Assembly: GCA_964526295.1 (NCBI GenBank)
Contig: CAZGKW010000007.1
Location: forward strand, 5,136 to 69,135
Source of the DNA: an uncultured Anaerolineales bacterium
GTDB taxonomy: Bacteria > Planctomycetota > Phycisphaerae > FEN-1346
DNA: 64,000 nt
Direction: 5' to 3'
A program made the translations under genes and the position numbers. Position 1 is the first letter of the stretch; each line of letters begins with the position of its first letter. Under the pieces are notes generated by a model. The model was not told where the DNA came from. It saw only the letters and a program-made list of their open reading frames with translations, and made no database searches. Of this stretch, positions 30,304 to 61,362 are shown piece after piece.

Positions 30304-30368
30304 CGCTCTATCTTACACGGGCGTCGGCCGGGGGAAAGGCCGCCGGGTCGTCGCGAAGCGTCCGCGCG

Positions 30369-32760: not shown

Positions 32761-32810
32761 CGACGGCGGGGGCGAGCGGCGTTACGTCGAGGCGTGAGGA
32801 AGGGCAGGGG

Positions 32811-39354: not shown

Positions 39355-40119
39355 TCAACGGCCCACGTGGCCTTCTTCGATGTCGAGGTCCTCGCGCCGC
39401 TCGATGCGTTCGACGGCCCCGTCGCGCATCCACAGGACCCGGTCGGAGTTGGCCAGCATCTTGTGGTCGTGGGTGGCGGCGATGATCGTCACGCCCTCCT
39501 CGACCGAGAGGCGTTTCAGCAGATCGATGATGTCGGCCCCGGTCTTCAGGTCGAGGTTCCCGGTCGGCTCGTCGGCCAGGATGATGACCGGGTCGTTGAC
39601 AAGGGCCCGGGCGATGGCAACCCGCTGCTGCTGGCCGCCGGAGAGCTCGTCCGGGCGGTGGTCGAGGCGGTCGCCCAGGCCGACCCGCTCGAGGACCCGG
39701 GCGGCGGCCACGGTGGCCGTCCGCGTGTCGGTCCCGGAGAGGACCCGCGGCAGCGCGACGTTCCGCGACGCCGTCAGCGACGGCAGCAGGTTGTAGGACT
39801 GGAAGACGTAGCCGATGTACTGGCACCGGACGTAGGCGAGCTGGCGGCTCGAGAGCTTCGTCAGGTCCATCGGGCCGATGGTCACCGAGCCTGAGCTGGG
39901 CACGTCGAGGGCCCCGATCATGTTGAACAGGGTCGTCTTGCCCGAGCCCGAGGGGCCCATGACCGAGAGGTACTCGCCGCAGAGGATGTCGGCGGAGACG
40001 TCCTTGAGGGCGTGGACGGTCTCGCCGCGGAGGCGATAGACCTTCGAGACGTTGCGGGCGCGGATGAGGACCTCGCCCAGGGCGATGCCGTCGCTTGCGG
40101 TTTCGAGCCCGGCCGTCAT
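39355..40119 (-). CDS. ABC transporter ATP-binding protein (MacB/FtsE/LolD-type)
   Basis: Walker A GPSGSGKTT, signature LSGGQQQRVAIARAL, Walker B ILADEPTGNLD, H-loop ATHD. Confidence 0.9.
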   Translation of the reverse strand: MTAGLETASDGIALGEVLIRARNVSKVYRLRGETVHALKDVSADILCGEYLSVMGPSGSGKTTLFNMIGALDVPSSGSVTIGPMDLTKLSSRQLAYVRCQYIGYVFQSYNLLPSLTASRNVALPRVLSGTDTRTATVAAARVLERVGLGDRLDHRPDELSGGQQQRVAIARALVNDPVIILADEPTGNLDLKTGADIIDLLKRLSVEEGVTIIAATHDHKMLANSDRVLWMRDGAVERIERREDLDIEEGHVGR

Positions 40120-40260
40120 TTGCTTCTTCGGTCTCCTCTGAGCGTGTTCAGGGGAGTCTCGTCAGTTTTTGGCGCGGCGGGTCACCGTGCCCGCCGCGTT
40201 CCGGTGGGCCAGGCGCGGCCGGCACGGAGACCGACCGCGCAGGACCATCCTGGACCCGCC

Positions 40261-42303: not shown

Positions 42304-42364
42304 CGGCCGATCCTCAGGCCCGTTCGGGCTTCCCTCGTTCCGCCATCTCCGCGGCGGGGCCCGG

Positions 42365-47512: not shown

Positions 47513-48375
47513 CACGCCTGCCCCCCGATCCGGCCCACCCGGACCTCGACGTCCTCGCGTCGGTCGACCCGCTCGATCTGGCCGTCGCGGATCCACATCA
47601 TCCGGTCGCAGACGTCGAGCAGGCGATGGTCGTGCGTCGCACAGACGACCGTCACGCCCTGGCTCTCGTTGAGGCGCTGGAGGACCTGGAGGATCTCGGC
47701 CCCGGTTGCCAGGTCCAGGTTGGCGGTCGGCTCGTCCGCCAGGAGGACCTTGGGCTGGTTGCACATGGCCCGGGCGATGGCGACCCGCTGCTGCTGGCCT
47801 CCCGACATCTCCTTCGGCCGATGGGTCCACCGGTCCGCCAGACCCACCAGGTCCAGCAGCTCCATCCCCCGCCGGCGGGCGGCCTCGGGCGCCACCCCGG
47901 CGAAGGCCATTGGCACCGTCACGTTCTCCAGGGCCGTCATGTACCGGATCAGGTTGTAGCCCTGAAAGATGTAGCCGATCTTGCGGCACCGGAGGAAGGC
48001 CAGCTCCTCGGCGCTGAGTTGGGCGACGTCGGTTTCGTCAATGAGGACCCGCCCCTCGGTGGGCGAGTCGAGCGCCCCGATCATGTTGAAGAACGTCGTC
48101 TTGCCCGAGCCCGAGGGGCCGAGGATGGCGATAAACTCGCCCCGGTGGATGACCGCGTTGACCCCGTTCAGGGCGTAGGTGGTCTTCTCGCCCATCTGGT
48201 AGCACTTGACGAGCCGGAGGGTCCGGATGATGACCGGCTCGTCGGTGGATTGCGGTGTCTCGGTCATCTCAGCTTGCGTGAATCCTTGCGCGTCCACAGG
48301 CCCCGGCGAGCTTCCGCTCGCCGCTCGAAAACTTTCGACTCGGGTTCCCGCCTTCGCCAAGGCGACGGCGGGCAA
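47512..48375 (-). CDS. ABC transporter ATP-binding protein (MacB/FtsE/LolD-type)
   Basis: Walker A GPSGSGKTT, signature MSGGQQQRVAIARAM, Walker B LLADEPTANLD, H-loop ATHD. Confidence 0.9.
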   Translation of the reverse strand: MPAVALAKAGTRVESFRAASGSSPGPVDAQGFTQAEMTETPQSTDEPVIIRTLRLVKCYQMGEKTTYALNGVNAVIHRGEFIAILGPSGSGKTTFFNMIGALDSPTEGRVLIDETDVAQLSAEELAFLRCRKIGYIFQGYNLIRYMTALENVTVPMAFAGVAPEAARRRGMELLDLVGLADRWTHRPKEMSGGQQQRVAIARAMCNQPKVLLADEPTANLDLATGAEILQVLQRLNESQGVTVVCATHDHRLLDVCDRMMWIRDGQIERVDRREDVEVRVGRIGGQA

Positions 48376-48420
48376 GCCCGCTTGCCGCTCGAAGACTTCC
48401 GCGGCAGGCTCGAACCGTTT

Positions 48421-49887
48421 TCATTCGATTCGCATCGCTTCCATCGGCGCGAGGCGGGCCGCCGCCCACGCCGGGCCCACCGCTGCCAGCACCGCCAGCA
48501 CCAGGCCCGAGGCGAGGCACGCCGCCGCCCCCACGAACGTCTCCCGCACCGGCAGCACCATCAGGCTGCCGAAGGCGACCGCGCCTCGCAGCATCGCCAG
48601 GGCGTAGCCCAGGATGATCCCCGCGATGGCCCCCACCAGGCCTTGCGTCCCCGACTCGAATAGAAACTGGAGCCGGATGAACCCGTCCATCGCCCCCAGG
48701 CACTTCATCGTGGCGATCTCGGCGAACCGCTCCGCCACCGACATGAACATGGCGTTCGCCACGCCCACCGTGCACACCAGGAACGACAGGCCGATCAGCC
48801 ACTTGACCCAACCGGGGACGGTCAGCAGACCGCCGCCCTCGACCGGGGGCGGCCCTTCGCCCACGGCCGCCGAGAGCCGCGACTGCTCCCGCAGCGACTC
48901 GGCCAGCGCCAGCAGCCGTTGCGGCTCCACACGCGGCCCGGCCGCGTACCGGTTGATCAGCGTCCCCAGAAACGCCGCCTTCTTCCGCGAGTCCAGCCAC
49001 GCGAGCACCCGGCCGTGGGTCACCTCGGTGGCCTTGAGGTCCAGCTCCTTGGCCAGGGCCCGGGCCACGTCGGGCAGCTTGACGGCTTCGGTCAGGCGGA
49101 TCTGCTCCTCGGCCTGCCGCGCCAGGGCCGCCAGCTTCGGCAGGGCCTCCTGGGGCAACTCGAACCCCGCGGCCGCCAGCGTCTCGGCGAAGTCCGGCGG
49201 CGGGTAGGCGAACAGCTCCCGCGGCGACCGGCCCGGATACGCCGCTTCGATACGCCGGATGGCCGCCTCCTGGCCCCGGCGGATCCGCTCGGCCATCGCC
49301 AGGGCCTCGGGGCGGTCTCCCGTCAGCACCGCCCGGAACCGCTCGACGCTACCGAGCGGCGGCTCCAGCCGGAGCTCCTTCAGGTGGGCGAGGAACGCCT
49401 CGAACCGCTGCGCTTCGCTCAGGCGGCCCGCCGCCTCGTGCGGCTCAAGGTCCGCCACCAGGACCGTCCGCGTCGCCACCGGCAGGCCCTCCAGGTAACC
49501 GTAGAGCCGGGCCAGCGACCGGGCGGCCTCGCGGGCCGAGGCGAACTCCGCCTCGGTCGCGCCGCTCCAGGTCCGGTACGCACCCACCCGCGGCCCGTCG
49601 GCCCCCGCCAGGCGCGAGAGGATCGCCGCCGCGTCGTCCGGCACCGTCAGGCGGGTCGTCCACTCGCCCAGGAGCCGGGCATCGCGGAGCTGCCGGTACG
49701 CCGCCAGACGCGTCCGGTTCTCGATCACGCTGTACCCGAGGACGTGGGCGAGGAACGCCACCGCCAGGGCCAGGATCGAGACCGTCACCATCGACCGGAA
49801 CATCCGGTACGACATCCCGGTCAGCGTCAGACCGAAGCACCGGGCCGGCCCGATGCGAACCTGGTTCTTGACCACCAGCGGCTTCAC
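48421..49887 (-). CDS. FtsX-like ABC permease (MacB-type, with ~350-aa extracytoplasmic helical domain)
   Basis: GTG at 49887 (VKPLVVKNQVRIGPARCFGLTLTGMSYRMFRSMVTVSILALAVAF is TM1) overlaps the PqqD-like gene stop. The C-terminal FtsX TM2-4 is ...LSFLVCTVGVANAMFMSVAERFAEIATMKCLGA...AARLAPMEAMR. The upstream low-complexity part of track ORF 48421..50163 is rejected. Confidence 0.75.
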   Translation of the reverse strand: MKPLVVKNQVRIGPARCFGLTLTGMSYRMFRSMVTVSILALAVAFLAHVLGYSVIENRTRLAAYRQLRDARLLGEWTTRLTVPDDAAAILSRLAGADGPRVGAYRTWSGATEAEFASAREAARSLARLYGYLEGLPVATRTVLVADLEPHEAAGRLSEAQRFEAFLAHLKELRLEPPLGSVERFRAVLTGDRPEALAMAERIRRGQEAAIRRIEAAYPGRSPRELFAYPPPDFAETLAAAGFELPQEALPKLAALARQAEEQIRLTEAVKLPDVARALAKELDLKATEVTHGRVLAWLDSRKKAAFLGTLINRYAAGPRVEPQRLLALAESLREQSRLSAAVGEGPPPVEGGGLLTVPGWVKWLIGLSFLVCTVGVANAMFMSVAERFAEIATMKCLGAMDGFIRLQFLFESGTQGLVGAIAGIILGYALAMLRGAVAFGSLMVLPVRETFVGAAACLASGLVLAVLAAVGPAWAAARLAPMEAMRIE

Positions 49888-50324
49888 GTCTCGGCCCCCT
49901 CGGCCGCCGGACCGGCCCCGTCGGTCGGCGTGCCGATCATCACGATCAGCCCCCGCCGGGTCAGGTCGCGGAGGAACTGCATGACGCTGATCCGGGCCTC
50001 CTGGAACGTCAGGTGGTGGGCCCGTGAAAAGCGCTCGATGATCTCTTCGGCGGTCCGCCGCCCGTCGCAGGCCTCCCACACCTCCCGGCCCAGCCGGTCG
50101 AGGCCCACGGCCCGCTCGCGGCTGAACGGCATCACCCACGACAGCGGCGGCCGCATGTACCACCGGCGGACGAGCGGCACGCGAAGGACGATCCCGCCTC
50201 CTCCCGGTCCCCGGCCCGACGGTTGCGGCTCGGCGCGGACCGACTCGTTCGGCACGGGGACGGCGTCGAGCAGGTCGGTCGGCCCCAGCGTCGTCTCGGT
50301 CTCCGGTTGCGTCTTCTTCTTCAT
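49884..50324 (-). CDS. PqqD-family / RiPP-recognition-element-like small protein
   Basis: ATG at 50324 overlaps the upstream stop as ATGA. The C-terminal ~85 aa read ...LDRLGREVWEACDGRRTAEEIIERFSRAHHLTFQEARISVMQFLRDLTRRGLI, matching the PqqD fold signature. It is hidden inside track ORF 49884..51245. Confidence 0.65.
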   Translation of the reverse strand: MKKKTQPETETTLGPTDLLDAVPVPNESVRAEPQPSGRGPGGGGIVLRVPLVRRWYMRPPLSWVMPFSRERAVGLDRLGREVWEACDGRRTAEEIIERFSRAHHLTFQEARISVMQFLRDLTRRGLIVMIGTPTDGAGPAAEGAET

Positions 50325-51205
50325 GTCAGCTCGCGCTCCGCCCCGTCCGGCGCCCCGTCGCAGCAGCGGACGGCGAAGGCCTCCGGCCGCACCAGGTCCT
50401 TCCGCGGGCCCCGCGTCGTCACCAGGAACACTGCGTGGGCCGACGGGCACAGCCACGCCCGGTCGAGCCGCTCCGGCGTCCGCCGCACGAACCGGGCGAC
50501 GGCGTTCGGGGCCTCGTTGCTGCGGCCGTCGCGGGCCTCGTGGGTCCCGTACGTCGTCTCGGACACCTGGCACCGGGCGGGGCCCGTCTGGTTCCTCAGG
50601 AACGCCGCCAGGTCCCCGCCGAACCAGGCGTCGACCGCCCCCAGCCGCCGCACGACCGCCTCCCGCCGCCGGTCCTTGCGGAACGTCATCGACGCATCGG
50701 CCGGCCGGGCCGACACCTCGGCCAGCGGCCACTCGGGCGGGACGCGGATGTCGAGGCCGAAGGCCCGCCACCGACGCGGCGGATCGGCCTCGTCGTCCAC
50801 CTCGAACCCCTCCAGGAGCCGCCGCTCCAGGCCCGTATCGACCGCCTCGGGCCACGAGACCACCATCTCGACCCACCGCTTCAAGGCCGCCAGGTACCGC
50901 CCGGCCCGGGTGATGGTGCCGGCCTCGCCCCGGCGGCGGAAGCCCCGCCAGCCGGCCGTCCGCTCCAGGCGAGTCAGCTTGCAGTCGGGGTCCTCGGCCA
51001 GCTCGTCGGCCCGGTAGTCCGAGAGCGTCCGCTTGACGTCCGGCTCGGCCTCGGCCCGGATCCACGAGACCTGGAGCCGTTGCCGACGTCGGTCCGCCAG
51101 GGCCAGGCTGCCCCGCTCGGCGCCCAGGGCGTGGCGGACGATCTCCCACGCCTCCGGCACCGCCAGGTGCATGCCCAGCCACACGATGTCGCGGGTCGTC
51201 TGCAT
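50321..51205 (-). CDS. hypothetical 294-aa protein (no TM, family not recognised)
   Basis: Track ORF 50321..51205(-). G/C-rich third positions. Its stop is coupled to the PqqD-like ATG. Confidence 0.6.
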   Translation of the reverse strand: MQTTRDIVWLGMHLAVPEAWEIVRHALGAERGSLALADRRRQRLQVSWIRAEAEPDVKRTLSDYRADELAEDPDCKLTRLERTAGWRGFRRRGEAGTITRAGRYLAALKRWVEMVVSWPEAVDTGLERRLLEGFEVDDEADPPRRWRAFGLDIRVPPEWPLAEVSARPADASMTFRKDRRREAVVRRLGAVDAWFGGDLAAFLRNQTGPARCQVSETTYGTHEARDGRSNEAPNAVARFVRRTPERLDRAWLCPSAHAVFLVTTRGPRKDLVRPEAFAVRCCDGAPDGAERELT

Positions 51206-51250
51206 CCGCTTGGCTCGCCAAGGCAGGCCCGCCTGCCCCCCTCACCCCAC

Positions 51251-51273
51251 CCCTCTCCCACCAGGGGAGAGGG
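51251..51273. repeat. GC-rich palindromic intergenic element (copy 2 of CCCTCTCC...GGAGAGGG + AGGTSATGG)
   Basis: CCCTCTCCCACCAGGGGAGAGGG followed by AGGTCATGG. It lies in the 87-nt gap between the 946-aa and 294-aa genes. Confidence 0.5.
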
Positions 51274-51291
51274 AGGTCATGGCATGCCGGC

Positions 51292-54132
51292 TCAGCCCGG
51301 CAACAGGCTGTAGGTCACCGGGGCCTTCCCCGTCAGGGCGAAATAGACGGCCCCGACGATGGCCCATCCGATGGCCGCCAGCAGCTCGCCGGCGATCACG
51401 CCGACCATAAGCGGCTTGATCAACTGGTACCCCTTGGCGCCGCCGAGCTTGACGACGGCGGTCTTGATGGCCCAGCCGAGGAAGAACGAGGCGGCGAGCT
51501 CGAACCCGGGCTTCGTGCCCCAGACGAGAAACATTACCGGATGGATAAACCACCAACTGATACGCAGCCGCGCGATCGAGACCCCCACCACCAGCGCCAG
51601 GCCGAGGCCCACCCAGCCCATGACTTCCGGGTCGAACCGGGCCTCCGCCAGGGCCCCCAGCCCCGACGTGGCCGTCGCCCGGGCCAGGTCGCCTCGGGCC
51701 CGGAGCTCCACGATGTGCTTCTCGATGCTGTTGAAGACCTCCCGCGGCAGCGACACCGTCGCCCACTTGTCCCGGTGGTTGACCCCGAGGTTGTACTGGA
51801 ACCACAACGTTACCAGCAGGGCCGCGACGAAGGCGGCCACCAGCATCACAAGCAGCCAGGGGGCCAGGCGGCGCGGCCGGGCGCCGGCGCCGCTGTGGCC
51901 CATCCGCAGGCCGTTCGCCAGATACGGCATGATGGCTTCCCGCGGGTCGCCCACCAGGATCACGCTGGCCAGGGCCAGCAGGACGTACGCCTGGGGACTG
52001 ATGGCCGAATGCCCCAGCACCGCCACCAGGACGGTCGCCGGCAGCCAGTAAGCCTGGAGGAAGAACGCCCCGGTCTCGACGTTGATCCGCGTGATGATCA
52101 ACAGCGTCAGCATCACCAGCGCGATTGCCAGGATGCTGAGCGGCCAGTCGAGCCCCGCCCGACACAGAAGCAGCACCGCCAGGACCAGGCACACGATCAG
52201 GCCGCGCGCCGCCCACGTGGCATAGGGGGGCGTGTCGCGCCGCCGACTGAGGCCGAAGGCGCTGCCCAGCACGTTCAGGTAATACCGCCGTCCGATGTAA
52301 AGCAGGACGCCCGCCATCCCAAGGTAGGCCCCGAAGACCATCAGGTTCACGTTCTTGGCGTCGAAGTACGGGCTGACCATCGCCGTGCCGCGGGCCACCA
52401 GGATCGTCCCGAACGCCACGTACGCGACGCCCGAGATGCCCAGGCTGAACGAGACCCCCTTGTTCAGGAAGAAGGCGAACGCCACGACGCTGAGGTAGAT
52501 CGTCGGGTTCCAAACGCCCTGCCAGTCGTAGACCTTCTTGGCCGTGGGGAAGAGCTTCTTCAGGGGCGTAAAGTCGACCTGCGTCGGGACCTTGATGAAG
52601 AACGTTTCGTTGTCCCACTTGTTCAGGCCGTTCACGAGGTGCAGCAGGACCAGCGCCAAGAGGCCGTACCAGAAGAGCCGCGACAGAAGGACCGCCGGGG
52701 TCCGGCTTTCCGCGGCGGGGCGCGTCACCTCCTCGACGAACCGGGCGATGGGGTAGGCCAGCAGCTCCCGCTGCGACCACTGGGGGTGGACGATCAGCGT
52801 CAGGCAAAGCGCCGCCGTGCCCACCAGCAGCGCCAGGCCACCCCACAGCTTCAGCGTCGGCCACCATGTCCTCCAGGGCAGGTCCGCCAGGCCGAGGCCG
52901 AATCGCTCCCCGGTGCCGCCCCGCCACCCCTGCTGGAGCGTCTCGACGGCGAAAGGGTCGATCGTCCCGCCGGCCAGCAGGGGGCCCTCGTCCGGGTCGT
53001 ACGGCGCGAGCAGCTCCGGCCAGGCCGCCTCCAACGCGATGCGGTTGATCTCGGCCTCCAGGCGGCCCACCTGGTTCGCCGTGCCGATCCGGTGGTCGAT
53101 CGAGTCGATGCGTTCCTGGAGGAGGCGGATGGGGTTGTCGTAGGCGGCAAGCCGCCCCGTGACGTCGCGAATGCGGGCCTCCAGCGGGGCCATGCGGGCA
53201 TCCAGGGCCTCGATCTCCCGGCGGAGGGCCTCGATCCGGCTCGTCAGGTCGGAGGGGGCCTCGGCCGCCGGGGCCGGTTCGCCGCCGGGGCCCTCGGCCT
53301 TGCGGAGGCGGGCCTGGAGGTCGGCAAGCTGCCGGGCCAAGGCCTCGCGCTGGAGGCGCAGGGGCTCGCGCTCGGCGATGAGGGCCTCCCGCTCGGGCTC
53401 CAGGCGGACCCGGAGGCTCGTCCGCCGGGCTTCCAACTCCCGGAGCCGATCGCCGAGATCCTCGCGCTGCACGGCCAGCTCGGCCCGCTCCTCGAGGAGC
53501 GCCTCGGCGACCTCCGGCAGTCGGTCCCCCAGGGCGGTATAGAACGCCCGGTCCTCGATGACGTTCTCGTTGATGGCCCGCAGGAGGGCGGATTCCTCGG
53601 CGTCCGAGAGGCGGGCGTCGTCGGGCCGCTCGCCCGCGATCCGTCGGGCCCCCTCGGGCAGAAGGGTCCAGACCAGCCGGTCGGTTTCGTCCTCCGCCGC
53701 CTCGGCGGCGGCCAGCCGCTCGACCAGCGCTTCCCAGTCGCGGACGTGGCCCCGGGCGAGGTGAGGAGAGCCGCCCGGCACGTACGACATGATCTGGGCG
53801 TCCTGCCACCCGGTCCGGTTCCGGATGAGCTGGCTGGGCATGGCGAGGTTCGTGGTGAACGTCCGGAAGAACCCCGAGCCGGGCCATCCGCAGGCCGCCA
53901 GGCCGATCGCCGTGATCACGACCAGCTCGGACGACTTCAGCCGCCACCTCGTTCCGACGGCGCCGAGCGTCGGGTTCACCGCCAGCAGCAGGACCACCAG
54001 GACGCCGAAGACCGCGATGGGAAGGAAGTTCCCGATCAGTTGGGTCTGGTTGATGACGGCGTCGTTGAAGTAGGTGACGGCCGAGACGAGGAGGCCGAGC
54101 AGGAGGCCCAGGATGACCGCGCGGAGCGTCAT
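51292..54132 (-). CDS. 946-aa polytopic membrane protein with ~350-aa central coiled-coil
   Basis: ATG at 54132 after GGGAGG gives MTLRAVILGLLLGLLVSAV.... It has ~5 N-terminal TMs, then a long heptad-rich region (...LRELEARRTSLRVRLEPEREALIAEREPLRLQREALARQLADLQARLRK...), then ~12 further TMs. The track ORF is extended to 54333. Confidence 0.7.
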   Translation of the reverse strand: MTLRAVILGLLLGLLVSAVTYFNDAVINQTQLIGNFLPIAVFGVLVVLLLAVNPTLGAVGTRWRLKSSELVVITAIGLAACGWPGSGFFRTFTTNLAMPSQLIRNRTGWQDAQIMSYVPGGSPHLARGHVRDWEALVERLAAAEAAEDETDRLVWTLLPEGARRIAGERPDDARLSDAEESALLRAINENVIEDRAFYTALGDRLPEVAEALLEERAELAVQREDLGDRLRELEARRTSLRVRLEPEREALIAEREPLRLQREALARQLADLQARLRKAEGPGGEPAPAAEAPSDLTSRIEALRREIEALDARMAPLEARIRDVTGRLAAYDNPIRLLQERIDSIDHRIGTANQVGRLEAEINRIALEAAWPELLAPYDPDEGPLLAGGTIDPFAVETLQQGWRGGTGERFGLGLADLPWRTWWPTLKLWGGLALLVGTAALCLTLIVHPQWSQRELLAYPIARFVEEVTRPAAESRTPAVLLSRLFWYGLLALVLLHLVNGLNKWDNETFFIKVPTQVDFTPLKKLFPTAKKVYDWQGVWNPTIYLSVVAFAFFLNKGVSFSLGISGVAYVAFGTILVARGTAMVSPYFDAKNVNLMVFGAYLGMAGVLLYIGRRYYLNVLGSAFGLSRRRDTPPYATWAARGLIVCLVLAVLLLCRAGLDWPLSILAIALVMLTLLIITRINVETGAFFLQAYWLPATVLVAVLGHSAISPQAYVLLALASVILVGDPREAIMPYLANGLRMGHSGAGARPRRLAPWLLVMLVAAFVAALLVTLWFQYNLGVNHRDKWATVSLPREVFNSIEKHIVELRARGDLARATATSGLGALAEARFDPEVMGWVGLGLALVVGVSIARLRISWWFIHPVMFLVWGTKPGFELAASFFLGWAIKTAVVKLGGAKGYQLIKPLMVGVIAGELLAAIGWAIVGAVYFALTGKAPVTYSLLPG

Positions 54133-54329: not shown

Positions 54330-54722
54330 TCACGTGAACCGATCAGGCGAGAGGGGCGCCGGGTCGAGGAGCGGCCGCTCTCCGACCAGGAGCTGCGCGA
54401 CGAGCCGGCCGGTCGCCGGCGCCTGGCAGATGCCCTTCATGGCGTGCCCCGTCGCGACCAGGAGGTCCTCGCACCGGCCGGTCCGGCCGACGGCCGGCAG
54501 GCCGTCCGGCAGGCACGGCCTGAGGCCCCGCCAGATCTCGACCTTCCGCTCGTCCGGACCTTCGACGGGCGGCCTGGCCGGCTCGCCGGCGTCGCACGCG
54601 TGGTAGGTCGACACGGCCCGCCGCACGGCCGCCACGCGGCGGCGGTCGACCGACTCGTCCAGGCCCGCCAGCTCCAGCGTCCCGGCGAACCGCAAGGCCC
54701 CGCCGAGGGGCGTGACGGCCAC
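54330..54722 (-). pseudogene. C-terminal remnant of FAD-dependent (DAO/ThiO/DadA-type) oxidoreductase lacking its N-terminal two thirds
   Basis: ...LLVATGHAMKGICQAPATGRLVAQLLVGERP...APLSPDRF is the conserved C-terminal FAD-closing region of DAO-family enzymes. No GxGxxG-containing N-terminus exists upstream in any frame. Confidence 0.5.
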
Positions 54723-55097
54723 CTTCGCCTCCGACAGCAGCAGCGGCCGTTCCGGCGCCGGCGCCCGTTCATTCGGACACGTCGTAGTAGAGCGGCGTGC
54801 GGGGCCCCCGGCCGAGGGTCTCCGAGAGCAGGTCGGCCTCGACCTCCGGGTGGGCGTCCATCGGTTCGGCCACCAGGACGTAGCTTCGTCCGACGGGCCG
54901 CCGGGCGATCGGCAGCACGTGCCCGTCCAGCAGCGTCCGGTGGCCCATGAAGATCGTCCTGCCGCGGTACTTGCCCGTCAGGACCTCCTCGACCTCGTAC
55001 TCGTAGATGGTGACGGCGCGGGGGTAGGGGGCGGCCTGGCGGGCGTCGGCCGGGTCCGGGCCGGCGAGACGACGGCCGTACTGGGACGGAACGGACG

Positions 55098-55150
55098 CAA
55101 AACCGGAAAGGTTTTGCGCATTCTGAGGCCGGGGGCCGGTTTTTTCTCCG
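55098..55150 (+). terminator. candidate tandem hairpin plus T-run terminator
   Basis: GCAAAACC-GGAAA-GGTTTTGC, then GGCCGGGGGCCGG, then TTTTTTCT. Confidence 0.3.
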
Positions 55151-55468
55151 TTTCGATTTGCCTCCGGGCGTTTTCTATGCTATATAAAGGGCGCTCGGCC
55201 TTACGGGTCCCCGCCCGCGGCGACCTCTGCCGCCGCCGGCCCTCTCCAACCGGACAAGCCAGATTCGCGGGAATTCCATGCTTGGCCGTCGAGAGCGTCC
55301 GCCACCGCCATCGCCTTTGTTTCGTCCACTGTATCACCCTTTCCACTGACGGCAAGACCCCATCCACGGGGCAACTCGATTCTAGGGGACCATGATCTAG
55401 GGGGCCAAGGAAATTCTGGTGAGGCTTGCGGGATGGGTTTGACAGAAGGAATGAAGATCAGGCGGGGC

Positions 55469-55813
55469 CTAGTTACTGCAGATTTCGGCCACGTTCTCGA
55501 TAAACTTCTCGGGGCTTATATCGGTGCTAATGAAGTCTCGGACAAGGGGGCTATATTGCTGATCTAGGTGCCCCTCGCGGGGCCTGCGGTGCATACATTC
55601 ATAGATCCTATTCAATGTCGAATCCCAAACCTCCCCGTAAGCGTCAATCTCTCCTTTAAGCCGTTCCTTTTCTGCTTCTGTTTCGGCATTTGTGTATTGA
55701 TTGACGAGCGCCTTGTATCGTCCCAGCCTATCGGCCAGCTCGCCCAACGTACACCCATCTGCGTTATCGAGATACCACTTTCTGGCGTTGAATTGGCGAT
55801 TGCCCTTGCCCAT
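55469..55813 (-). CDS. hypothetical 114-aa soluble protein (island gene)
   Basis: Track ORF. No TM and no recognised motif. Low-GC codon usage matches the island. Confidence 0.5.
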   Translation of the reverse strand: MGKGNRQFNARKWYLDNADGCTLGELADRLGRYKALVNQYTNAETEAEKERLKGEIDAYGEVWDSTLNRIYECMHRRPREGHLDQQYSPLVRDFISTDISPEKFIENVAEICSN

Positions 55814-55948
55814 TTGCTCCTCCCCTTCCTCTGCGCCTACGGGTGTGATCGGTTCACTTGCTAGCTCATTCTACAGACTCCCTCACTCAGATTAGACGGC
55901 GCGGTCGGCGTTTTTCCTTGGCCCATCCCGATTCGCGCGGTACTGGCG

Positions 55949-56257
55949 TCATCGTTTCCGAAGTGACGCCAGCCCAAAGCCGACGACAGTTGGGATTGAA
56001 CCCACGACAATAATTACGAGTATGCTATCGATGGTATTTGCTAGCGCGAAGAATAGGAGCGCCGAGAGAATCAGCCCCCCTAGGACGGCAATGGCACCCC
56101 ATCCCGTTGTTGCTTCGGTCTTCTCTCCTGAGATCGGATGCCCACAGTGGGGGCATTGGCAAGCAGATGAACTAACTTGACTGGAGCAAACAGGGCATCT
56201 TATCAGTCCCATTGCAGCCACCTCTTCAGGATCCAAAGATTGTGGCCCGCAACTCAA
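55949..56257 (-). CDS. zinc-ribbon membrane protein (island gene)
   Basis: CPVC...CPHC zinc ribbon, then two TM helices (AIAVLGGLILSALLFFALA / ILVIIVVGSIPTVVGFGLA). The start may be the internal MGLIRCPVC. Confidence 0.55.
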   Translation of the reverse strand: MSCGPQSLDPEEVAAMGLIRCPVCSSQVSSSACQCPHCGHPISGEKTEATTGWGAIAVLGGLILSALLFFALANTIDSILVIIVVGSIPTVVGFGLASLRKR

Positions 56258-56286
56258 GCAGACGGTCGAGACTTAGAGTTGCACGC

Positions 56287-57090
56287 TCAGAGGAACGGGA
56301 CCAACCCGAGGAGGAACGGGATCAGCCCGAGAATGAAGACGCCGACTATGAGCCAAAGTGAACCAACGAAGCCAAGAATTAGTCCGGCCGTGGCTAATCC
56401 CTTCGGTTCGCTGAACATCCCGCAAAAGCTGAGCAGAAGGCCAATGGGTGCAAGGACGCCGCAGGAAAAGAATCCCAGGAGCGAAAAGACGAAACCCGCG
56501 ACCCCCAAAACGTTGCTTCGTGGAGCCTCTATGACAACCACTTGAGACTGGCTTTGCCTTGAAGTTCGGCTGACTTGGCGATAAGGCGCACCCCTGTTGC
56601 TTGGTTGTATATTCGCATTCGTGTGTACATGTGCCGAGGATGGTACAGGAAGCTTCTGTTCGTAAGGTTGAAGGACTTCGCCCTCTATCGCCTGTGTACG
56701 TCCTGCGGTTTCTGTCTTTGCCTTAGCGTCTAGATAAGCCTCAGACTCGCGACGTTTTTGCTCCTGTTCTCTCTTATGTTCTGCTGCGGCTTTGACCTTG
56801 CGCTGTTTTGCTGCTTTTCGTTTCTGTCGATATTCCTTCATTCGCTGTTGCATCTCGGGCCACAGAAGCTGAAACCCAGCGGCTTGGACGATGTTCTGAC
56901 ACTTTGAGCACTGGATATCGTCGCGTCGGTGCTCGTAAGAAACCGTGATCCCGTCGCCACAAACAGGGCACTTAAACCGGACTGGGTGTTTTGCAACCAT
57001 GTCGAATCGCTCTACCTTGACAATCGGAACGGAGCAAATAAGAACTTCATCACTGAGAACGCACGCTTCCCCCCTTCTTCTTCGATTCAA
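56287..57090 (-). CDS. zinc-ribbon membrane protein with Lys/Arg/Glu-rich linker (island gene)
   Basis: CPVCGDG...CSKCQN zinc ribbon, a highly charged KRK-rich linker, and a C-terminal multi-TM segment. The TTG start at 57090 abuts the PEP-CTERM gene stop; an alternative ATG is at 57000. Confidence 0.55.
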   Translation of the reverse strand: MNRRRRGEACVLSDEVLICSVPIVKVERFDMVAKHPVRFKCPVCGDGITVSYEHRRDDIQCSKCQNIVQAAGFQLLWPEMQQRMKEYRQKRKAAKQRKVKAAAEHKREQEQKRRESEAYLDAKAKTETAGRTQAIEGEVLQPYEQKLPVPSSAHVHTNANIQPSNRGAPYRQVSRTSRQSQSQVVVIEAPRSNVLGVAGFVFSLLGFFSCGVLAPIGLLLSFCGMFSEPKGLATAGLILGFVGSLWLIVGVFILGLIPFLLGLVPFL

Positions 57091-57774
57091 TCAGGACTTC
57101 AAACGCTTCCTGCTGTACGATCCCAGAAACCCGAGCCCAATAAGGCCGGAAGCCAACGTTACCGGTTCGGGAATCACGTAACCAGGTTCAAGGTCCACTT
57201 CAATCCTGAGCGTAGCGTAGTCTATGGCCGCATCGTCAGTCAAACGCATGTCGAGTACCCCGTCTTGGAGAAGCGGAAGCCTATCATCCCCCAAGACGTT
57301 CGCGAGGTCGAGCGTCCTCATGCTAGTTCCCGACTCAGGGACGGGGAGCCACCCTAGGTCGCTGAAGGTGTAGTATGGATAGTCCTCAATGGGGTTGTCC
57401 TTGTGAAACACCACCCAGTCGGTGGTCACCAGGCCATCCGTCGCTCGCAAAGCGAAAGTCAGCGTAGCTGCCGTCACTTGCTCTCCTGTCGCAAGCGAAA
57501 ACTCCAGCGTGAACGGCACCAACTGGTTGGCGTGGAGTTCGTCAAAGTCGGACGTTCGAGGAACACGAGGGACTGCAAGCCAAGCTTGCATGCCCGGACT
57601 CAGATATACGTCATCTTCGCTTCCTGCGCCTTCGTAGGTGAACCCGTCAGCGTCGCCCAGCAGGTACTCACGGGTTTCAGGATATGTTATGGCTAGGGCT
57701 GGGACCTGGGCGCAGGCGAAGAAGCCAATCCCACCGGCAACCAAAAAGGCAGCACACTTCCCAAGACATGTCAT
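57091..57774 (-). CDS. PEP-CTERM sorting-signal secreted protein
   Basis: Signal peptide. The C-terminus VIPEPVTLASGLIGLGFLGSYSRKRLKS has the PEP motif, a hydrophobic helix and a basic tail, which is the exosortase substrate signature. Confidence 0.75.
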   Translation of the reverse strand: MTCLGKCAAFLVAGGIGFFACAQVPALAITYPETREYLLGDADGFTYEGAGSEDDVYLSPGMQAWLAVPRVPRTSDFDELHANQLVPFTLEFSLATGEQVTAATLTFALRATDGLVTTDWVVFHKDNPIEDYPYYTFSDLGWLPVPESGTSMRTLDLANVLGDDRLPLLQDGVLDMRLTDDAAIDYATLRIEVDLEPGYVIPEPVTLASGLIGLGFLGSYSRKRLKS

Positions 57775-57888
57775 TCCGCTTCCCCCACTTTTACATTGTC
57801 ATAAACATTCGGCGAACTGGGCAATGTACCTCAAGAACCCGGTTGCGTCAAATAGAAAATGGCGCGCTACTTAGTTCGAGTTGTGCAC

Positions 57889-58425
57889 TTATGCCGCTCG
57901 TGAACAGAGATCCGGCAGGGACTGAAGGGATTTGCGCGAACCCTGGTCCCAGGCCGGGGTCTCCGAAAACCGCTGTCGCAGCGACTGCCGCCGGAGGGTC
58001 GTCAGCAGGTCCGCGAACGCGGCCCGACGCTTCCGGCGGTACCACGGCCGGTGCGGAAAGGACAGATGGCGATGGCCGTCCTGGACGAACCACAGGACGC
58101 TCAGACTGTACAGGAGCGGGGCCGTGGGAGCGGTCCGCTCGACGGCCCGGCGGGTCCAGCCCCGGGGCCCCTCGAAGCCCAGGTGCCCCTTGGCCACGCC
58201 GATGTCATGCTCCTCGCTCACCCACAGCAGCCGGGCCTCGCCCAGGTCGTCCACCAGGTCCGCCCCGTAGTCCCGCGGGACGAAGTTGCCGAACGGTCCG
58301 TTGAACATCGGCCAGGCGGGCGGCCGCGCGCCCTCGGCCGCTGCCGCCATGCCCACTCCCACCAGGGCGATCAGCAGCGTCGCGGCCCGCAGGATCCGAA
58401 GAACACTATTCGCGTTGCCGTGCAT
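57889..58425 (-). pseudogene. partial duplicate of the N-terminal ~100 aa of the downstream PQQ-like lipoprotein, with unrelated tail
   Basis: AWPMFNGPFGNFVPRDYGADLVDDLGEARLLWVSEEHDIGVAKG closely parallels AWPMFNGPCGNFVPLRFDVQLVDDLADARLLWVSEEEDIGIAKG of gene 58406..60067. The remainder is low-complexity. Confidence 0.55.
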
Positions 58426-60067
58426 AAGGTTTGCTCCCGTGAACCTGGTTGTTCGGTGAGTTGCGCAGGTCGTAGCAGACGATCGCCCCCAAGGACGTGC
58501 GCAAGTAGATACGGCCGTCGTAGTAGGGAACCTCGATCGGCACGCCCGAGCCCGTTGCGGCGAAGTGCGGCGCGATCCAGCCGTGCGAGAGACGCTCCAC
58601 CCGGCCGCCGGAGATGTCGAACCAGGACGCCCCGAACTGCCGGTCGTTGTGGACGACGTCGTAGAACGTCATCATGTGGTCCCCGCAGAGCAGGATCTGG
58701 TTGAAGCCGTTCTTCTCCGGCGTCTCCGGAAGCGGGCGTACCTCCTGGAGGACCTCGCCGGTCTCCTCCCCGATGACGAACAGATATCGCTTGTCACGGA
58801 GGCCCTGGCTGTTGCCGAGCCAGACGATGCCGTCCCGGATCACCACCTTCCGGTGCGTGCCGGGGCCCGGGCCGACCTTGAAGTCGTACTTCGCCTCGTC
58901 CGGCAGCTTCCAGGCGAGTTCGGCCCCGCCCAAGTCGAAGCGGTAGGCGCCCCACCGCCCGCCGTAACGCCCATCCGGCGCCGTCTCGGGGTCCGGCCGG
59001 ACGTTCACCAGCACGTGCGAGTCCGACGGGCCGAGGGGGGAGAGCATCGGCCCCAGACCCTCTACCGTCCAGAGCACCTCGCCGGAGCGGGGGTCGATCA
59101 GCCGAAGCTCGCCCCGGCCCGAGTTGGCCAGCAGGTACTCCCGCCCCTCCAAGCGGACGACGGCCGGTGTCGAGAACTTGCTCAGCACCCCGCCGATCTC
59201 CCAGAGGATCTCGCCGTTTTCCGGATCCACGCCGGCCAGGCCGCGCGGGCTGCCCGTAAACGTCGGGCAGATCAGCACGTCGGCGGCCACCACCAGCGAA
59301 CTGAGCCAGCCACTGAGCAGCTGCGCATCGCCGAAGCGCTGCTGCTCCAGCGCAGCCGCCTTGGCTTGTTCGGCCAGCTCGTGCGTGCGGCCGAGGCCCT
59401 GTTCCCAGATCTTCGCGCCGGTCTGCGCATCGTAGCAGTACAGTCGGGCCGTCGTGCCGAGATGGTAGACGCGCCCGTCGTGGTAGACTGGCGAGACGCC
59501 CCAGCCGCCGCGCTTCAGCCCCGGCGTCCGTACGCCCTTGCGCTGCTCGATGGCCTTCCACTTCGTTCGTCCGGTCTCGGCGTCGATCGCCACGACGACG
59601 TCGTGGGCGTCGATCGCCCAGATGTCCCACCACGTCTCCGGGGCCTCGGCCCGCGTGCCCACCGTCCGCAGGGACTCCGGCGAGTATGGCGGACCGACCG
59701 GGCGGAAGAAGGCGACATAGACGGTCCCTTCGGCCACGATCGGGCTGCTCCGCCCGCCGGGGTGGGGACTGGCGCCTTCGGCGACGATCCGTTGCGGGCC
59801 GTACGGCCCCTTGGCGATGCCGATGTCCTCCTCCTCGCTCACCCACAGCAGGCGGGCGTCGGCCAGGTCGTCCACGAGTTGCACGTCGAAGCGGAGCGGG
59901 ACGAAGTTGCCGCAGGGCCCGTTGAACATCGGCCAGGCTGCCCGGGCGGCGTGGGCAGATGTCTCGTCGGCGCCCGCTGCGATCCCAACTGTGCATCCGG
60001 CCACCAGGCCGAGCACGGCAAGTGAACCCGCGCCAAGTAGCCGATTCCATCCGAGATCCGTGCTCAT
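58406..60067 (-). CDS. PQQ-like beta-propeller repeat lipoprotein
   Basis: Signal peptide plus LVAGC lipobox. Propeller blades include AIDAETGRTKWKA, CYDAQTGAKIWEQ, VDPENGEILWE and IDPRSGEVLWT. Confidence 0.8.
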   Translation of the reverse strand: MSTDLGWNRLLGAGSLAVLGLVAGCTVGIAAGADETSAHAARAAWPMFNGPCGNFVPLRFDVQLVDDLADARLLWVSEEEDIGIAKGPYGPQRIVAEGASPHPGGRSSPIVAEGTVYVAFFRPVGPPYSPESLRTVGTRAEAPETWWDIWAIDAHDVVVAIDAETGRTKWKAIEQRKGVRTPGLKRGGWGVSPVYHDGRVYHLGTTARLYCYDAQTGAKIWEQGLGRTHELAEQAKAAALEQQRFGDAQLLSGWLSSLVVAADVLICPTFTGSPRGLAGVDPENGEILWEIGGVLSKFSTPAVVRLEGREYLLANSGRGELRLIDPRSGEVLWTVEGLGPMLSPLGPSDSHVLVNVRPDPETAPDGRYGGRWGAYRFDLGGAELAWKLPDEAKYDFKVGPGPGTHRKVVIRDGIVWLGNSQGLRDKRYLFVIGEETGEVLQEVRPLPETPEKNGFNQILLCGDHMMTFYDVVHNDRQFGASWFDISGGRVERLSHGWIAPHFAATGSGVPIEVPYYDGRIYLRTSLGAIVCYDLRNSPNNQVHGSKPYARQRE

Positions 60068-60284
60068 GGTCCTTCCTTTCCATTAGTGCAGGTCTGCACC
60101 TGTACTCATCGCCACTCTTGTCCAAAACAATCTTGAAACCGCGTGAACGCTTGAAGGTTTCGACGTCTCCCGGAATGGGGTAGCATGGGGATTGGTTAAA
60201 GCCCAAACACCCCATCCAGGAGACGCTTACAGGGTATCAGTGGCCAGTCTGTTGGGTCAAGTCCCAGAAACAAGTCGGCTGGGT

Positions 60285-61319
60285 TCAGGCCGCGGGGACG
60301 AGGTTCCGCACCTCGAAGCCGTCGGCCCGTCGGGCCTGGATGTAGCGATTCAGTTCCTCCCGTTCCAGCGTCGTGAACTTCACGCCGCGCCACCGCTCGC
60401 TCGCCCGCCACAGCGTGGCGAACACGAGTTTCAGGCACTCCTTCTCACCCCGGAAGCGCGGCAGGACCTTCGCCCGGCGCCGCTCCTCCACGAAACTCCG
60501 CTCGCACAGGTTCGTCGTCCGCACCGTCCGGGGGTGCCGGCCCGGCAGCTTCAGGTGGGCCAGGCTGGCCGCCAGGTCGTCCTCCAGGCACCCCGCCGCC
60601 GACGGCAGGTCCCGCGAACGCAGCTCCTCCACCAGGGCCTGGGCCCGCTCCCGCCCCAGCTCGTGGTTCGGGGCCTCCCGCACGTCCACCAGCAGCCGCT
60701 TGATCTCCTCACGCTGAGCCTCCGGCACTTTTTCCAGCACGTTCTTCATCTTGTGCACCCAGCACCGGATCCGCTCCGCCGACGGCCACGTCGCCTCGAT
60801 CGCCGCCAGGCACCCCGGCGCCCCGTCGCTCGTCACGGTCAGCGGCGTCGGCAGGCCCCGCTTGCGGGCCAGGGTGTCGTCGACGGCTAGCCAGACCCCG
60901 GCGGCGGGGTCCAGCAGACGCAGCACGAGGTCCAAGGCGGCCAGACCCAACTCGTCGAGCGACCACCGGGCGGCGGCGAAGACCCGGTGGAACGCCGAGT
61001 GGTGCTTCGTGCCGACGGCCCCGGCCGCCTGGATCATGCCGGTGACCGTCCGCCGACGGGCGAATATCCATCCCGCCAGCACGATGAGGAAACTCTGAAA
61101 GGTCGGCCGGGTCATCACGAAAGAAACCTCACGAACCAGCGTCTCGAACGTCGAGACGAATTCCACAGGCGAGCCCTCCTCCGTTCGGTGCGTTTGCCAC
61201 TCACTGAACCGGCAGGAAGGCTCGTTATTTATTGACAAAACTCCCGGCGCCCCACCACCTTGAAAAGTGCGAAACACGAACTGAGTGTCCTTTTGACAGA
61301 AGCTAAGCCCTTTATCCAC
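60285..61319 (-). mobile_element. chimeric/degenerate transposase ORF: IS256-family C-terminal half fused to an unrelated IS (IS701/IS4-like) N-terminal fragment
   Basis: The C-terminus ...SDGAPGCLAAIEATWPSAERIRCWVHKMKNVLEKVP...TTNLCERSFVEERRRAKV... matches the IS256 (Transposase_mut) catalytic half. The N-terminus ...LAGWIFARRRTVTGMIQAAG...HSAFHRVFAAARWSLDELG...LAVDDTLARKRG resembles a different DDE transposase N-terminus. No intact full-length IS256 N-terminus is present. Confidence 0.65.
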
Positions 61320-61334
61320 ACCGGGTTAGGCGCA

Positions 61335-61362
61335 GAAAAAAGACACTTAGTGTCTTTTTTTT
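61335..61362. terminator. third copy of the AAAAGACACTTAGTGTCTTTT palindrome flanked by A and T runs (bidirectional terminator-like)
   Basis: GCGCAGAAAAAAGACACTTAGTGTCTTTTTTTTCC, with the same 21-bp core as at 14563 and 14615. Confidence 0.5.

Follow-up and report, generated by a model that had tools for sequence, protein, structure and literature searches.

The window analysed here, a 64-kb stretch of DNA from a high-G+C genome that is probably planctomycete, contains a low-G+C islet (positions 55,316–57,868, no strand assigned) that is very probably a recent horizontal acquisition. Taken together with a functional sketch of its four genes (D, C, B, and A), the whole statement remains probable, whereas the sketch by itself is tentative and rather doubtful. 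The islet has a G+C content of 54%, versus 70% for its surroundings, and its limits were defined by likelihood segmentation and by the edge of an IS701 repeat. G+C was 0.51–0.58 at about 55,200–57,900, as against 0.65–0.77 across the rest of the window. A two-change-point likelihood fit delimited a block at 55,316–57,940 (G+C 0.539 versus 0.701), and the lowest G+C of any other 2.6-kb segment was at least 0.663, giving the islet a z value of −10 within the 64 kb. The right edge was placed at the IS701 inverted repeat (57,869), and homology to a related locus, L008, begins at about 57,860. Codon usage and oligonucleotide composition showed the same deviation, with GC3 values of 0.51–0.62 in the four islet genes, compared with 0.80–0.98 in about 40 host ORFs, and a tetranucleotide distance between islet and host of 0.68 (host chunks: mean 0.18, maximum 0.34). 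The nearest tetranucleotide signatures (0.27) were those of L008, L016 and L026, contigs that carry homologues and have a G+C content of 56–58%. The donor would most likely have been another member of the Planctomycetota-like community, with about 55% G+C.

An earlier note had pointed to this low-G+C block as horizontally acquired and proposed G+C and codon-usage plots as a check; the values above bear out the block and its deviation. A compositionally foreign block set among disrupted genes and remnants of IS elements, as seen here, is the classic mark of horizontal acquisition. The islet is of an ordinary kind, resembling other small islets of IS-rich variable regions in its deviating G+C, GC3 and tetranucleotide composition, and in its association with IS remnants, truncated genes and accessory surface or membrane cargo. 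However, it differs from them in that an integrase, a tRNA target and flanking direct repeats are all missing, and only one of its borders is an IS end. If acquired as proposed, the islet provides a clean and quantitatively supported case of very recent import into a 70% G+C genome.

The junctions themselves were verified in independent data. Logan contigs from SRR7048218 and SRR7048227 bridge both of them (100% and 99.97% identity), and two further runs carry the islet with short flanks. The abruptness of the compositional switch, and the fact that Logan contigs L003 and L004 stop no more than about 250 nt from each border, might suggest that a lower-G+C piece was misjoined into a high-G+C contig during assembly or binning. 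However, the junction-spanning contigs L001 (13.1 kb) and L002 (8.7 kb) are independent assemblies of different runs and cross both junctions with identical sequence, the short contigs keep a host-type flank (230–250 nt on the left and about 130–180 nt on the right), and the breaks in L003 and L004 fit a loss of coverage in DNA of 70–75% G+C. As both junctions are spanned by two independent assemblies, we conclude that the islet is not a chimera, an explanation to which we would give next to no chance. The breaks in L003 and L004 were also considered as a possible sign of repeats at the borders, an interpretation that was set aside because G+C-dependent coverage loss explains them better.

The islet is part of a 7-kb "junkyard", with a DUF6785/ABC-transporter cluster at one end and a porin gene at the other. 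The left border had been described as a truncated FAD-oxidoreductase remnant. Such a remnant is indeed present on the minus strand (54,330–54,722), corresponding to the C-terminal third of a FAD-dependent (DAO/DadA-like) oxidoreductase with its N-terminus missing (Pfam DAO, positions 259–353 of 353 only, E 5e-14), and the in-frame sequence upstream of it is not protein-like. However, two truncated genes were found rather than one, the second being a host-like gene on the same strand (54,769–55,101), reduced to a 110-aa C-terminal fragment without a start codon. This fragment has host-type codon positions (GC3 0.83) and matched no Pfam or NCBIfam model. No integrase, tRNA gene, direct repeat, second IS701 end or other repeat was found at the left border, and no recombinase domain was detected in the four islet genes or in the flanking ORFs.

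On the right, a minus-strand ORF (57,889–58,425) is a chimera of the N-terminus of a PQQ-protein paralogue (aa 1–78) and the C-terminus of an IS701 transposase (aa 79–156, matching positions 327–403 of 412 of the model; NCBIfam NF049999, E 7e-11). The neighbouring gene (58,406–60,067, minus strand) encodes an intact PQQ-like beta-propeller lipoprotein (Pfam PQQ_2, E 5e-19) and has host composition (GC3 0.88). The PQQ-like fragment matches the start of this gene over 133 nt at 84%, but the amino-acid identity of 56% indicates a diverged paralogue. Thus, the fragment that had been taken for a partial duplicate of the PQQ gene does exist, but it is fused to IS701 and is not a recent copy. Farther to the right, the chimeric IS remnant reported previously was confirmed as a minus-strand ORF (60,285–61,319) that joins the N-terminus of an IS701 transposase (model positions 4–101) to the C-terminus of an IS256 transposase (170–334) in Pfam and NCBIfam searches.

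The assignment of these fragments to IS701 and IS256 insertion sequences by NCBIfam and Pfam models is accompanied by two terminal inverted repeats of the IS701 family, each 22 nt long. The islet-side repeat, ACTTAGTTCGAGTTGTGCACTT, lies on the plus strand at 57,869–57,890 and pairs at 18 of 22 positions with a second one about 3.4 kb away, on the minus strand (61,265–61,286); no further match was found elsewhere in the window or in shuffled sequences. The islet ends exactly at the first repeat, the cut falling 18 nt upstream of the −35 box of gene D (57,851 to 57,869). The two IS701 transposase fragments scored 41.7 bits (positions 327–403) and 66.4 bits (positions 4–101), against a cut-off of 170 for the 412-position model, and no full-length IS701 transposase was found in the right flank. 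Unlike IS701 elements, of which fragments alone survive here, the two ends enclose 3.4 kb of host genes and lack a target-site duplication, the 4-mers flanking the repeats being different. This arrangement suggests that the ends probably belong to two copies that have lost their inner parts. The G+C content of the IS701 fragment (0.66–0.74) is host-like, implying a resident element rather than a part of the import. The locus shows a variable region shaped by IS701/IS256 activity and deletions: the gap has probably been cut repeatedly by both kinds of element and by deletions, and the islet may have entered by illegitimate or IS-associated recombination, with the IS701 insertion and the deletions following later.

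The contact with an IS701 terminal repeat, together with several deletions in the region, could also be read as the last trace of a larger mobile element (an IS701 composite transposon, an integrative element or a prophage) that has lost its mobility genes. In line with this, a 22-nt inverted repeat brackets D and the C/B module in L008, and a leader fragment lying inverted inside the islet shows prior recombination. We nevertheless consider a remnant of this kind unlikely, given the host-like, resident character of the IS701 fragment, the lack of an IS701 repeat at the left border and the absence of the L008 bracketing repeat from the window. Nothing significant was obtained with PHROGs, phage and plasmid collections yielded no DNA match to the islet, no tRNA gene was found, and no relative of D was present in viral contigs. 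An anti-phage defence function, or a phage or plasmid origin, was likewise rejected, as PADLOC and PHROGs returned only sub-threshold zinc-ribbon noise. Rfam produced chance hits only, and a non-coding RNA within the islet was discarded as a candidate.

The preferred reading is that of a small islet recently acquired by horizontal transfer. Over about 2.55–2.6 kb, four minus-strand genes follow one another in the order D, C, B, A, and independent gene calls on Logan contigs recover all of them. The cargo is as the earlier note had proposed, namely a PEP-CTERM protein, two zinc-ribbon membrane proteins and a small unfamiliar protein, but the genes cannot be called tightly packed, with spacers of 90, 77 and 135 nt. 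Four small co-oriented genes of foreign composition separated by 77–135 nt, and the unlike divergence of D (88% identity) and C (about 50%) from L008, which implies module shuffling, would be in keeping with an integron-type cassette array that lacks its integrase. However, inspection of the three spacers revealed no imperfect palindromes of the attC type (RYYYAAC/GTTRRRY ends), a conserved promoter of its own precedes D, and the leader of C is kept in L008 and L012 as a 5′ leader, not as a 3′ recombination site. An integron array is therefore hardly credible. The inverted leader, on the plus strand (55,907–55,943), is a 37-nt copy of the sequence found ahead of C-type genes in L008 and L012, contigs from SRR31660262 and SRR31660266. 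It is 89% identical to positions 964–1000 of L008 on the opposite strand and includes an exact 22-mer; this copy marks an earlier recombination event within the cassette.

A putative sigma-70-type operon promoter, TTGACG-17-TACATT, was located on the minus strand at 57,823–57,851 by a consensus scan. In L008/L009, a relative with 88% identity, both hexamers and the distance between them are retained, and the sequence farther upstream is unrelated. The first gene, D (57,091–57,774, minus strand), encodes a putative exported protein of 227 aa for which motifs, Pfam searches and an AF2 model point to a signal peptide, a beta-sandwich and a PEP-CTERM tail. The putative signal peptide, read from motifs, consists of a hydrophobic stretch (aa 3–27) ending in PALA and followed by a conserved YPETREY sequence. 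The tail has the layout VIPEP, transmembrane segment, RKRLK: the VIPEP motif occupies aa 200–204 of 227 and is followed by the transmembrane helix VTLASGLIGLGFLGSY and then by the basic sequence SRKRLKS. The definition of PEP-CTERM proteins includes a near-invariant Pro-Glu-Pro near the C-terminus (Haft et al. 2006, PMC1569441), and D resembles the substrates of the PEP-CTERM/exosortase system described there in its signal peptide, C-terminal Pro-Glu-Pro, transmembrane helix and basic cluster. Relatives of D match TIGR02595 and PF07589 (six and seven, respectively, of the eight family members, with E values of up to 0.01). However, D itself scores below the curated cut-offs (PF07589: 16.5 bits, cut-off 20.7; no TIGR02595 match at E 0.01), and it leads a four-gene operon, in contrast to the single-gene operons reported as typical. 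The AF2 model of D is a jelly-roll (pLDDT 70) with weak CBM/BcsB-like matches (TM-score of about 0.3). No exosortase was found within the 64-kb window, in which the multi-transmembrane ORFs were MotA/ExbB, OPT-like, FtsX and DUF6785 proteins, nor was there a second PEP-CTERM protein within these limits. At other loci, D-like genes frequently adjoin other PEP-CTERM genes.

The comparison with L008 also bears on the age of the import. Both D and C are under purifying selection (Ka/Ks of 0.095 with Ks of 0.70 for D and its 88%-identical homologue in L008, and Ka/Ks of 0.19 for C and its homologue P0011). Despite a Ks of 0.7, GC3 is the same in D from the window (0.62) and from L008 (0.621), so no drift towards host composition is detectable. 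A genome scan for an islet-free close relative returned a single locus, 45% identical and not syntenic, and exact look-ups of the flanking proteins retrieved the same arrangement only, with no empty site.

One further locus suggests a different history. L011 carries a D-like gene (51% identity) whose position, 300 nt upstream of a member of the DUF6785 family, matches that in the window in order and orientation, implying that a D-type gene at this spot may predate the present allele. D would then be an old resident upstream of DUF6785, its allele having been swapped, together with neighbouring genes, for that of a lower-G+C relative. Such a xenologous replacement would agree with the lower GC3 of D-like genes relative to their neighbours in several high-G+C contigs (0.72 versus 0.89–0.93 in L010, and 0.70 versus 0.90 in L011). 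However, this is one case only, the DUF6785 protein of L011 could be a paralogue, its identity being no more than 35%, and tblastn revealed no D-like gene upstream of the 45%-identical orthologue in L005. Furthermore, D is separated from DUF6785 in the window by unrelated truncated genes (DAO and the second fragment). Replacement at an old site is thus quite unlikely, and we retain the acquisition of a new islet as the explanation of this locus.

Gene C (56,287–57,000, minus strand) encodes a protein of 237 aa with a zinc ribbon and a DUF4190-like hydrophobic C-terminal domain, as delimited by gene callers and by the homologue P0011, which has 56% identity and the same architecture. A TTG start abutting a stop had been proposed for this gene, but homologues and gene callers place the start at the ATG at 57,000, and the TTG is an artefact of the ORF listing. 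Motifs and hydropathy divide the protein into a CPVC...CSKC zinc ribbon, a K/R-rich helix (aa 45–100), a Ser/Gln linker and a hydrophobic domain (aa 162–237). In common with DUF4190-like zinc-ribbon membrane proteins, C and its homologues have a four-cysteine ribbon at the N-terminus and, at the C-terminus, two glycine-rich hydrophobic helices, which align with the profile from end to end. However, the DUF4190 (PF13828) scores of C (10.2 bits, E 0.66) and P0011 (16.5 bits) are far below the cut-off of 35, and these proteins are therefore not members of the family. To our knowledge, DUF4190 has no known function, and a search of the literature for DUF4190 associated with a zinc ribbon, or for DUF6785, found nothing.

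Gene B (55,949–56,212, minus strand), called on L003 and preceded by GAGGTG 6 nt upstream of its ATG, encodes a protein of 87 aa with a CPVC...CPHC zinc ribbon and two transmembrane helices. In L008, a single polypeptide begins like C and ends like B: the first 99 aa of C are 51% identical to this fusion protein, and B is 42% identical to its C-terminal half over 31 aa. HMM searches of the zinc-ribbon membrane proteins, which the earlier note had suggested, gave matches above the Pfam zinc-ribbon thresholds for the fusion protein, but C and B from the window remained below them. Since the N-terminal domain of C is fused to a B-like domain in a relative, it is probable that C and B cooperate and serve as a membrane partner for D. 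The pairing of a PEP-CTERM protein with adjacent zinc-ribbon membrane proteins, to which the note had drawn attention, is not recurrent; it was found again only in the related locus L008/L009, and about 17 other D-like loci lack it.

Gene A (55,469–55,813, minus strand) has a strong GGAGGAG ribosome-binding site and encodes a near-orphan of 114 aa, predicted from protein searches and AF2 to be a soluble helical bundle. It matched only itself among 5.8 billion proteins, and a single homologue was identified among 1.84 billion representatives (31% identity, E 1e-7). The AF2 model has five helices (pLDDT 75) and no fold match in the PDB. A weak TIGR03879 match (E 0.09) had raised the possibility of an HTH regulator, which was dropped in view of this plain five-helix bundle. 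A terminator-like hairpin directly 3′ of the gene (55,459–55,471, minus strand) is a weak candidate from a consensus scan only.

These features suggest that the four genes may form one transcription unit that starts at the sigma-70-type promoter, covers D, C, B and A in this order and ends at the weak terminator. D would be exported by Sec, its PEP-CTERM tail recognised by an exosortase of the host, and the protein presented at the cell surface or within the exopolysaccharide layer, where a glycan or some other surface ligand might be bound by its CBM-like jelly-roll. The products of C and B would be inner-membrane proteins with their zinc ribbons and the basic helix of C facing the cytoplasm, and A may be a soluble helical accessory protein. 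The islet would then be an accessory cell-surface module. It is also conceivable, although very unlikely, that D-C-B(-A) constitutes a mobile "surface-display cassette", complete in itself, of Planctomycetota-like bacteria, an undescribed accessory module of the exosortase system in which C and B partner D, for example by coupling exosortase-dependent anchoring to a cytoplasmic signal, and which passes from genome to genome as a small unit with inverted repeats at its ends, as in L008. The evidence linking D to the zinc-ribbon membrane proteins is thin; if they do partner D, they would provide a first handle on accessory factors of exosortase sorting. D defines a rare family of PEP-CTERM proteins, with the signature YPETREY...DYAxLT[IL]EV-PEP, known from about 25 loci and behaving as part of the flexible genome.

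The low-G+C block at 55,316-57,868 (hereafter the islet), which carries genes D, C, B and A on the minus strand, is real, well delimited and horizontally acquired, and its cargo is uncharacterised. The remainder of the window (the host sequence) has a G+C content of about 70%, with 1-kb bins of 0.65-0.76 except at 55-58 kb, where they fall to 0.53-0.58. At 400-nt resolution the trough spans about 55,200-57,900 (G+C 0.51-0.58), and a two-change-point likelihood fit placed the block at 55,316-57,940 (0.539 vs 0.701 outside; z = -10), every other window of the same size having a G+C content of at least 0.663. GC3 was 0.51-0.62 in the four islet genes vs 0.80-0.98 in about 40 host ORFs of the window, and the tetranucleotide distance between islet and host was 0.68 (equal-size host chunks: mean 0.18, maximum 0.34). 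These analyses bear out the compositional contrast and the coordinates proposed in the earlier note. Both junctions are crossed by Logan contigs from SRR7048218 (13.1 kb, 100% identity) and SRR7048227 (8.7 kb, 99.97%), and 2.9-kb contigs from SRR7048220 and SRR15699983 contain the islet and extend into host-type sequence by 230-250 nt at its left border and by about 130-180 nt at its right. The islet is not an assembly artefact, because contigs from two separate runs span both junctions, and for the same reason a chimera generated during assembly is hardly credible.

Both flanks are disrupted. On the left, the truncated FAD-oxidoreductase previously described was recovered as a DAO fragment (54,330-54,722, minus strand; Pfam positions 259-353 of 353 only), but it is not the sole remnant: a second C-terminal fragment (54,769-55,101, minus strand), which includes the sequence …AVTIYEYEVEEVLTGKYRGRTIFMGHRTLLDGHVLPIARRPVGRSYVLVAEPMDAHPEVE… and has no start codon, ends 46 nt upstream of it, with host-type codon usage (GC3 0.83) and no Pfam or NCBIfam match. 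The composition is mixed between this fragment and about 55,316, and this border shows neither an IS701 repeat nor a tRNA gene or a direct repeat. On the right, an ORF at 57,889-58,425 (minus strand) joins two unrelated parts. Its residues 1-78 are similar to the beginning of an intact gene next to it, for a PQQ-like beta-propeller lipoprotein (58,406-60,067, minus strand), with 56% amino-acid identity and 84% identity over 133 nt, and residues 79-156 align with the IS701 transposase model at positions 327-403 of 412. The likeness behind the suggested partial PQQ duplicate is genuine, but the N-terminal part is a diverged paralogue fused to an IS701 C-terminus and not a fresh duplicate.

Just past the stop codon of this ORF, a 22-nt sequence (57,869-57,890, plus strand) pairs in inverted orientation, at 18 of 22 positions, with 61,265-61,286 (minus strand); no further match to this repeat was found elsewhere in the window or in shuffled sequences. 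The distal copy sits upstream of another chimeric ORF, with an IS701 N-terminus and an IS256 C-terminus, which corresponds to the chimeric IS remnant already recognised. The interval bounded by the repeats (57,869-61,286, the IS701 shell) contains two IS701 transposase fragments, an IS256 fragment, the PQQ-paralogue fragment and the intact PQQ gene, and has no target-site duplication. Deletion of the inner parts of two IS701 copies is the most likely origin of the shell, which could, in principle, undergo mobilisation in trans as a composite unit. The right end of the islet is the IS701 repeat itself, 18 nt upstream of the -35 box of D (57,851 to 57,869), and homology to L008, the locus of the closest relative, starts at about 57,860. 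The IS701 fragment has a host-like G+C content, and IS701 is therefore a resident element cutting the islet, not its vehicle. A strong bidirectional terminator-like hairpin (61,330-61,360; AAAAAAGACACTTAGTGTCTTTTTTTT) lies in a local dip of the G+C content, with the IS701 end on one side and the porin gene on the other. Defence, phage, plasmid and RNA-family searches were all negative; we consider it unlikely that the islet is the remnant of a larger mobile element, and an integron-like cassette array would be extremely improbable.

Contrary to the earlier note, the four genes are not tightly packed, since their spacers measure 90, 77 and 135 nt. A promoter (TTGACG-17-TACATT, 57,851-57,823) lies 5' of D, its hexamers and spacing are kept in the closest relative, in which the sequence farther upstream is unrelated, and a weak terminator-like hairpin follows A. 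The simplest reading is that D-C-B-A form one operon. Gene D (57,091-57,774, minus strand; 227 aa) encodes an N-terminal hydrophobic signal sequence ending in PALA, a mature domain opening with the family signature YPETREYLLGD and the C-terminus VIPEP-VTLASGLIGLGFLGSY-SRKRLKS, with the same order of PEP, transmembrane helix and basic cluster that defines PEP-CTERM proteins (PMC1569441). The D family matches PF07589 (7 of 8 members) and TIGR02595 (6 of 8), in agreement with the PEP-CTERM assignment of the earlier note, with D itself below the Pfam cut-off (16.5 vs 20.7 bits). Neither an exosortase nor a PEP-CTERM protein other than D was found in the window. The AlphaFold2 model of D, built from an 8-sequence alignment (pLDDT 70, pTM 0.64), is a beta-sandwich, and its top PDB matches, with TM-scores of only about 0.3 throughout, were the BcsB carbohydrate-binding domain, CBM6/15/4 modules and TGF-beta prodomains. 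This points to a jelly-roll that possibly binds glycans, and to nothing beyond that.

The two predicted zinc-ribbon membrane proteins were confirmed, C and B both having a four-Cys ribbon and hydrophobic or transmembrane segments. Protein C (56,287-57,000, minus strand; 237 aa) has a CPVC...CSKC ribbon followed by a highly basic helix (17 K/R between aa 45 and 100), a linker rich in Ser and Gln and a hydrophobic C-terminal domain (aa 162-237), with which the DUF4190 profile aligns end to end at a score far below threshold. The TTG abutting a stop, previously taken as its start, is only the earliest possible start in the open frame; gene callers place the start at the ATG at 57,000, and in both homologues the initial Met occupies the corresponding position, immediately ahead of the ribbon. 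Protein B (55,949-56,212, minus strand; 87 aa) combines a CPVC...CPHC ribbon with two transmembrane helices, and its ribosome-binding site (GAGGTG) lies 6 nt 5' of the ATG. Protein A (55,469-55,813, minus strand; 114 aa), the small unknown protein of the cargo, is soluble and preceded by a strong GGAGGAG site. Its sole match among 5.8 billion proteins was itself, and 1.84 billion representatives, scanned in full with HMMER, yielded one remote homologue (31% identity, E 1e-7); no PDB neighbours were found for its model, a five-helix bundle (pLDDT 75). At L016 (186-1681), this sole detected homologue is followed directly by a 319-aa protein that has zinc ribbons at its N-terminus as well as a transmembrane helix, a weak echo resembling the A/zinc-ribbon neighbourhood of the window.

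Relatives of D are rare, with only 8 in the search of 5.8 billion proteins and 16 more D-like loci from a pattern scan of JGI metagenomes. The closest, P0002 (L008/L009; 88% identity), lies on a contig with 57% G+C and has a GC3 of 0.62. The Ka/Ks of 0.095 between the two genes (Ks 0.70) indicates purifying selection on D, which is thus a functional gene. Despite this divergence their GC3 values are equal, so that D has not drifted towards the host value of 0.9, which argues for a recent arrival. We consider it probable that the islet was acquired recently by horizontal transfer, and quite unlikely that it xenologously replaced a D-type gene already resident here. No near relative was found in the genome collection, where the single match was a Phycisphaeraceae MAG (45% identity), without synteny; placement of the host in the Planctomycetota, as Phycisphaerae-like, is accordingly tentative.

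At L008, D is followed by a gene for a single 176-aa protein, above the Pfam thresholds for Zn_ribbon_LysW and DZR, which shares 51% identity with the N-terminus of C over its first 99 residues and has, in its second half, a transmembrane helix and a zinc ribbon (42% identity to B across the ribbon). This 'Rosetta-stone' fusion hints that B and the cytoplasmic domain of C may cooperate. A full-length C homologue, P0011 (56% identity, Ka/Ks 0.19), is encoded at L012, which shares its sample of origin with L008, and has no D-like gene beside it. Since no A, B or C homologues were found in the roughly 17 other D-like loci, where the neighbours are mainly other PEP-CTERM genes or tandem D paralogues, the D/zinc-ribbon pairing is lineage-specific and does not form a recurrent system. 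A mobile 'surface-display cassette', in which zinc-ribbon membrane proteins would serve as dedicated partners of a PEP-CTERM protein, is very unlikely. Weak echoes were seen at L019/L020, where a small CxxC-TM-CxxC-TM ORF lies 650 nt from tandem D-like genes, and at L011 (69-2935), where a gene for a DUF6785-family membrane protein (35% identity to the product of 51,292-54,132) is preceded, at a distance of 300 nt, by a D-like PEP-CTERM gene (51% identity). The order and orientation are those of D and the DUF6785 gene in the window, either by chance or because the neighbourhood may be conserved. A 22-nt inverted repeat (91% complementary), not found in the window, flanks the D and zinc-ribbon module of L008 (24-45 and 1647-1668, 1.6 kb apart) and could be the boundary of a mobile cassette or a dispersed repeat in two copies.

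Identity to L008 is uneven (D 88%, C only about 50%), and an inverted 37-nt copy of the L008-type C leader, including an exact 22-mer, lies between B and A (55,907-55,943). Recombination with related cassettes therefore took place, either during the residence of the cassette at the present locus or earlier. A perfect 12-nt inverted repeat surrounds A (55,402-55,413 and 55,913-55,924; GGGCCAAGGAAA and TTTCCTTGGCCC); about 0.3 such pairs per 3 kb are expected by chance, and its right arm overlaps the inverted leader fragment.

The findings show a foreign operon, recently arrived, in an IS-scrambled gap. We tentatively suggest that it encodes a secreted D that, if the host has an exosortase, would be processed at the PEP-CTERM and presented on the envelope or within the exopolysaccharide layer, its jelly-roll domain binding a ligand there. 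C and B would lie in the inner membrane, with the ribbons and basic helix cytoplasmic (positive-inside rule), and jointly act as the partner of D, and A would be a soluble accessory protein. This sketch, taken as a whole, is possible rather than probable.

Elsewhere in the window, a large transporter-like cluster (39,355-54,132, minus strand) encodes two ABC ATPases, FtsX-type permeases (one of 1,891 aa), a PqqD-like protein, an OPT-like 9-TM protein and a 946-aa DUF6785/DUF6784 protein with a long coiled-coil insert; no literature on DUF6785 was found. Two proteins of about 800 aa (26,989-30,312, minus strand; 32,754-35,114, plus strand) have the C-termini …VRVAGYTAYF… and …VRMGGWSAYF… and are adjoined by a CxxxCxxC protein. 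From their translations, they look like putative glycyl-radical enzymes with an activase.
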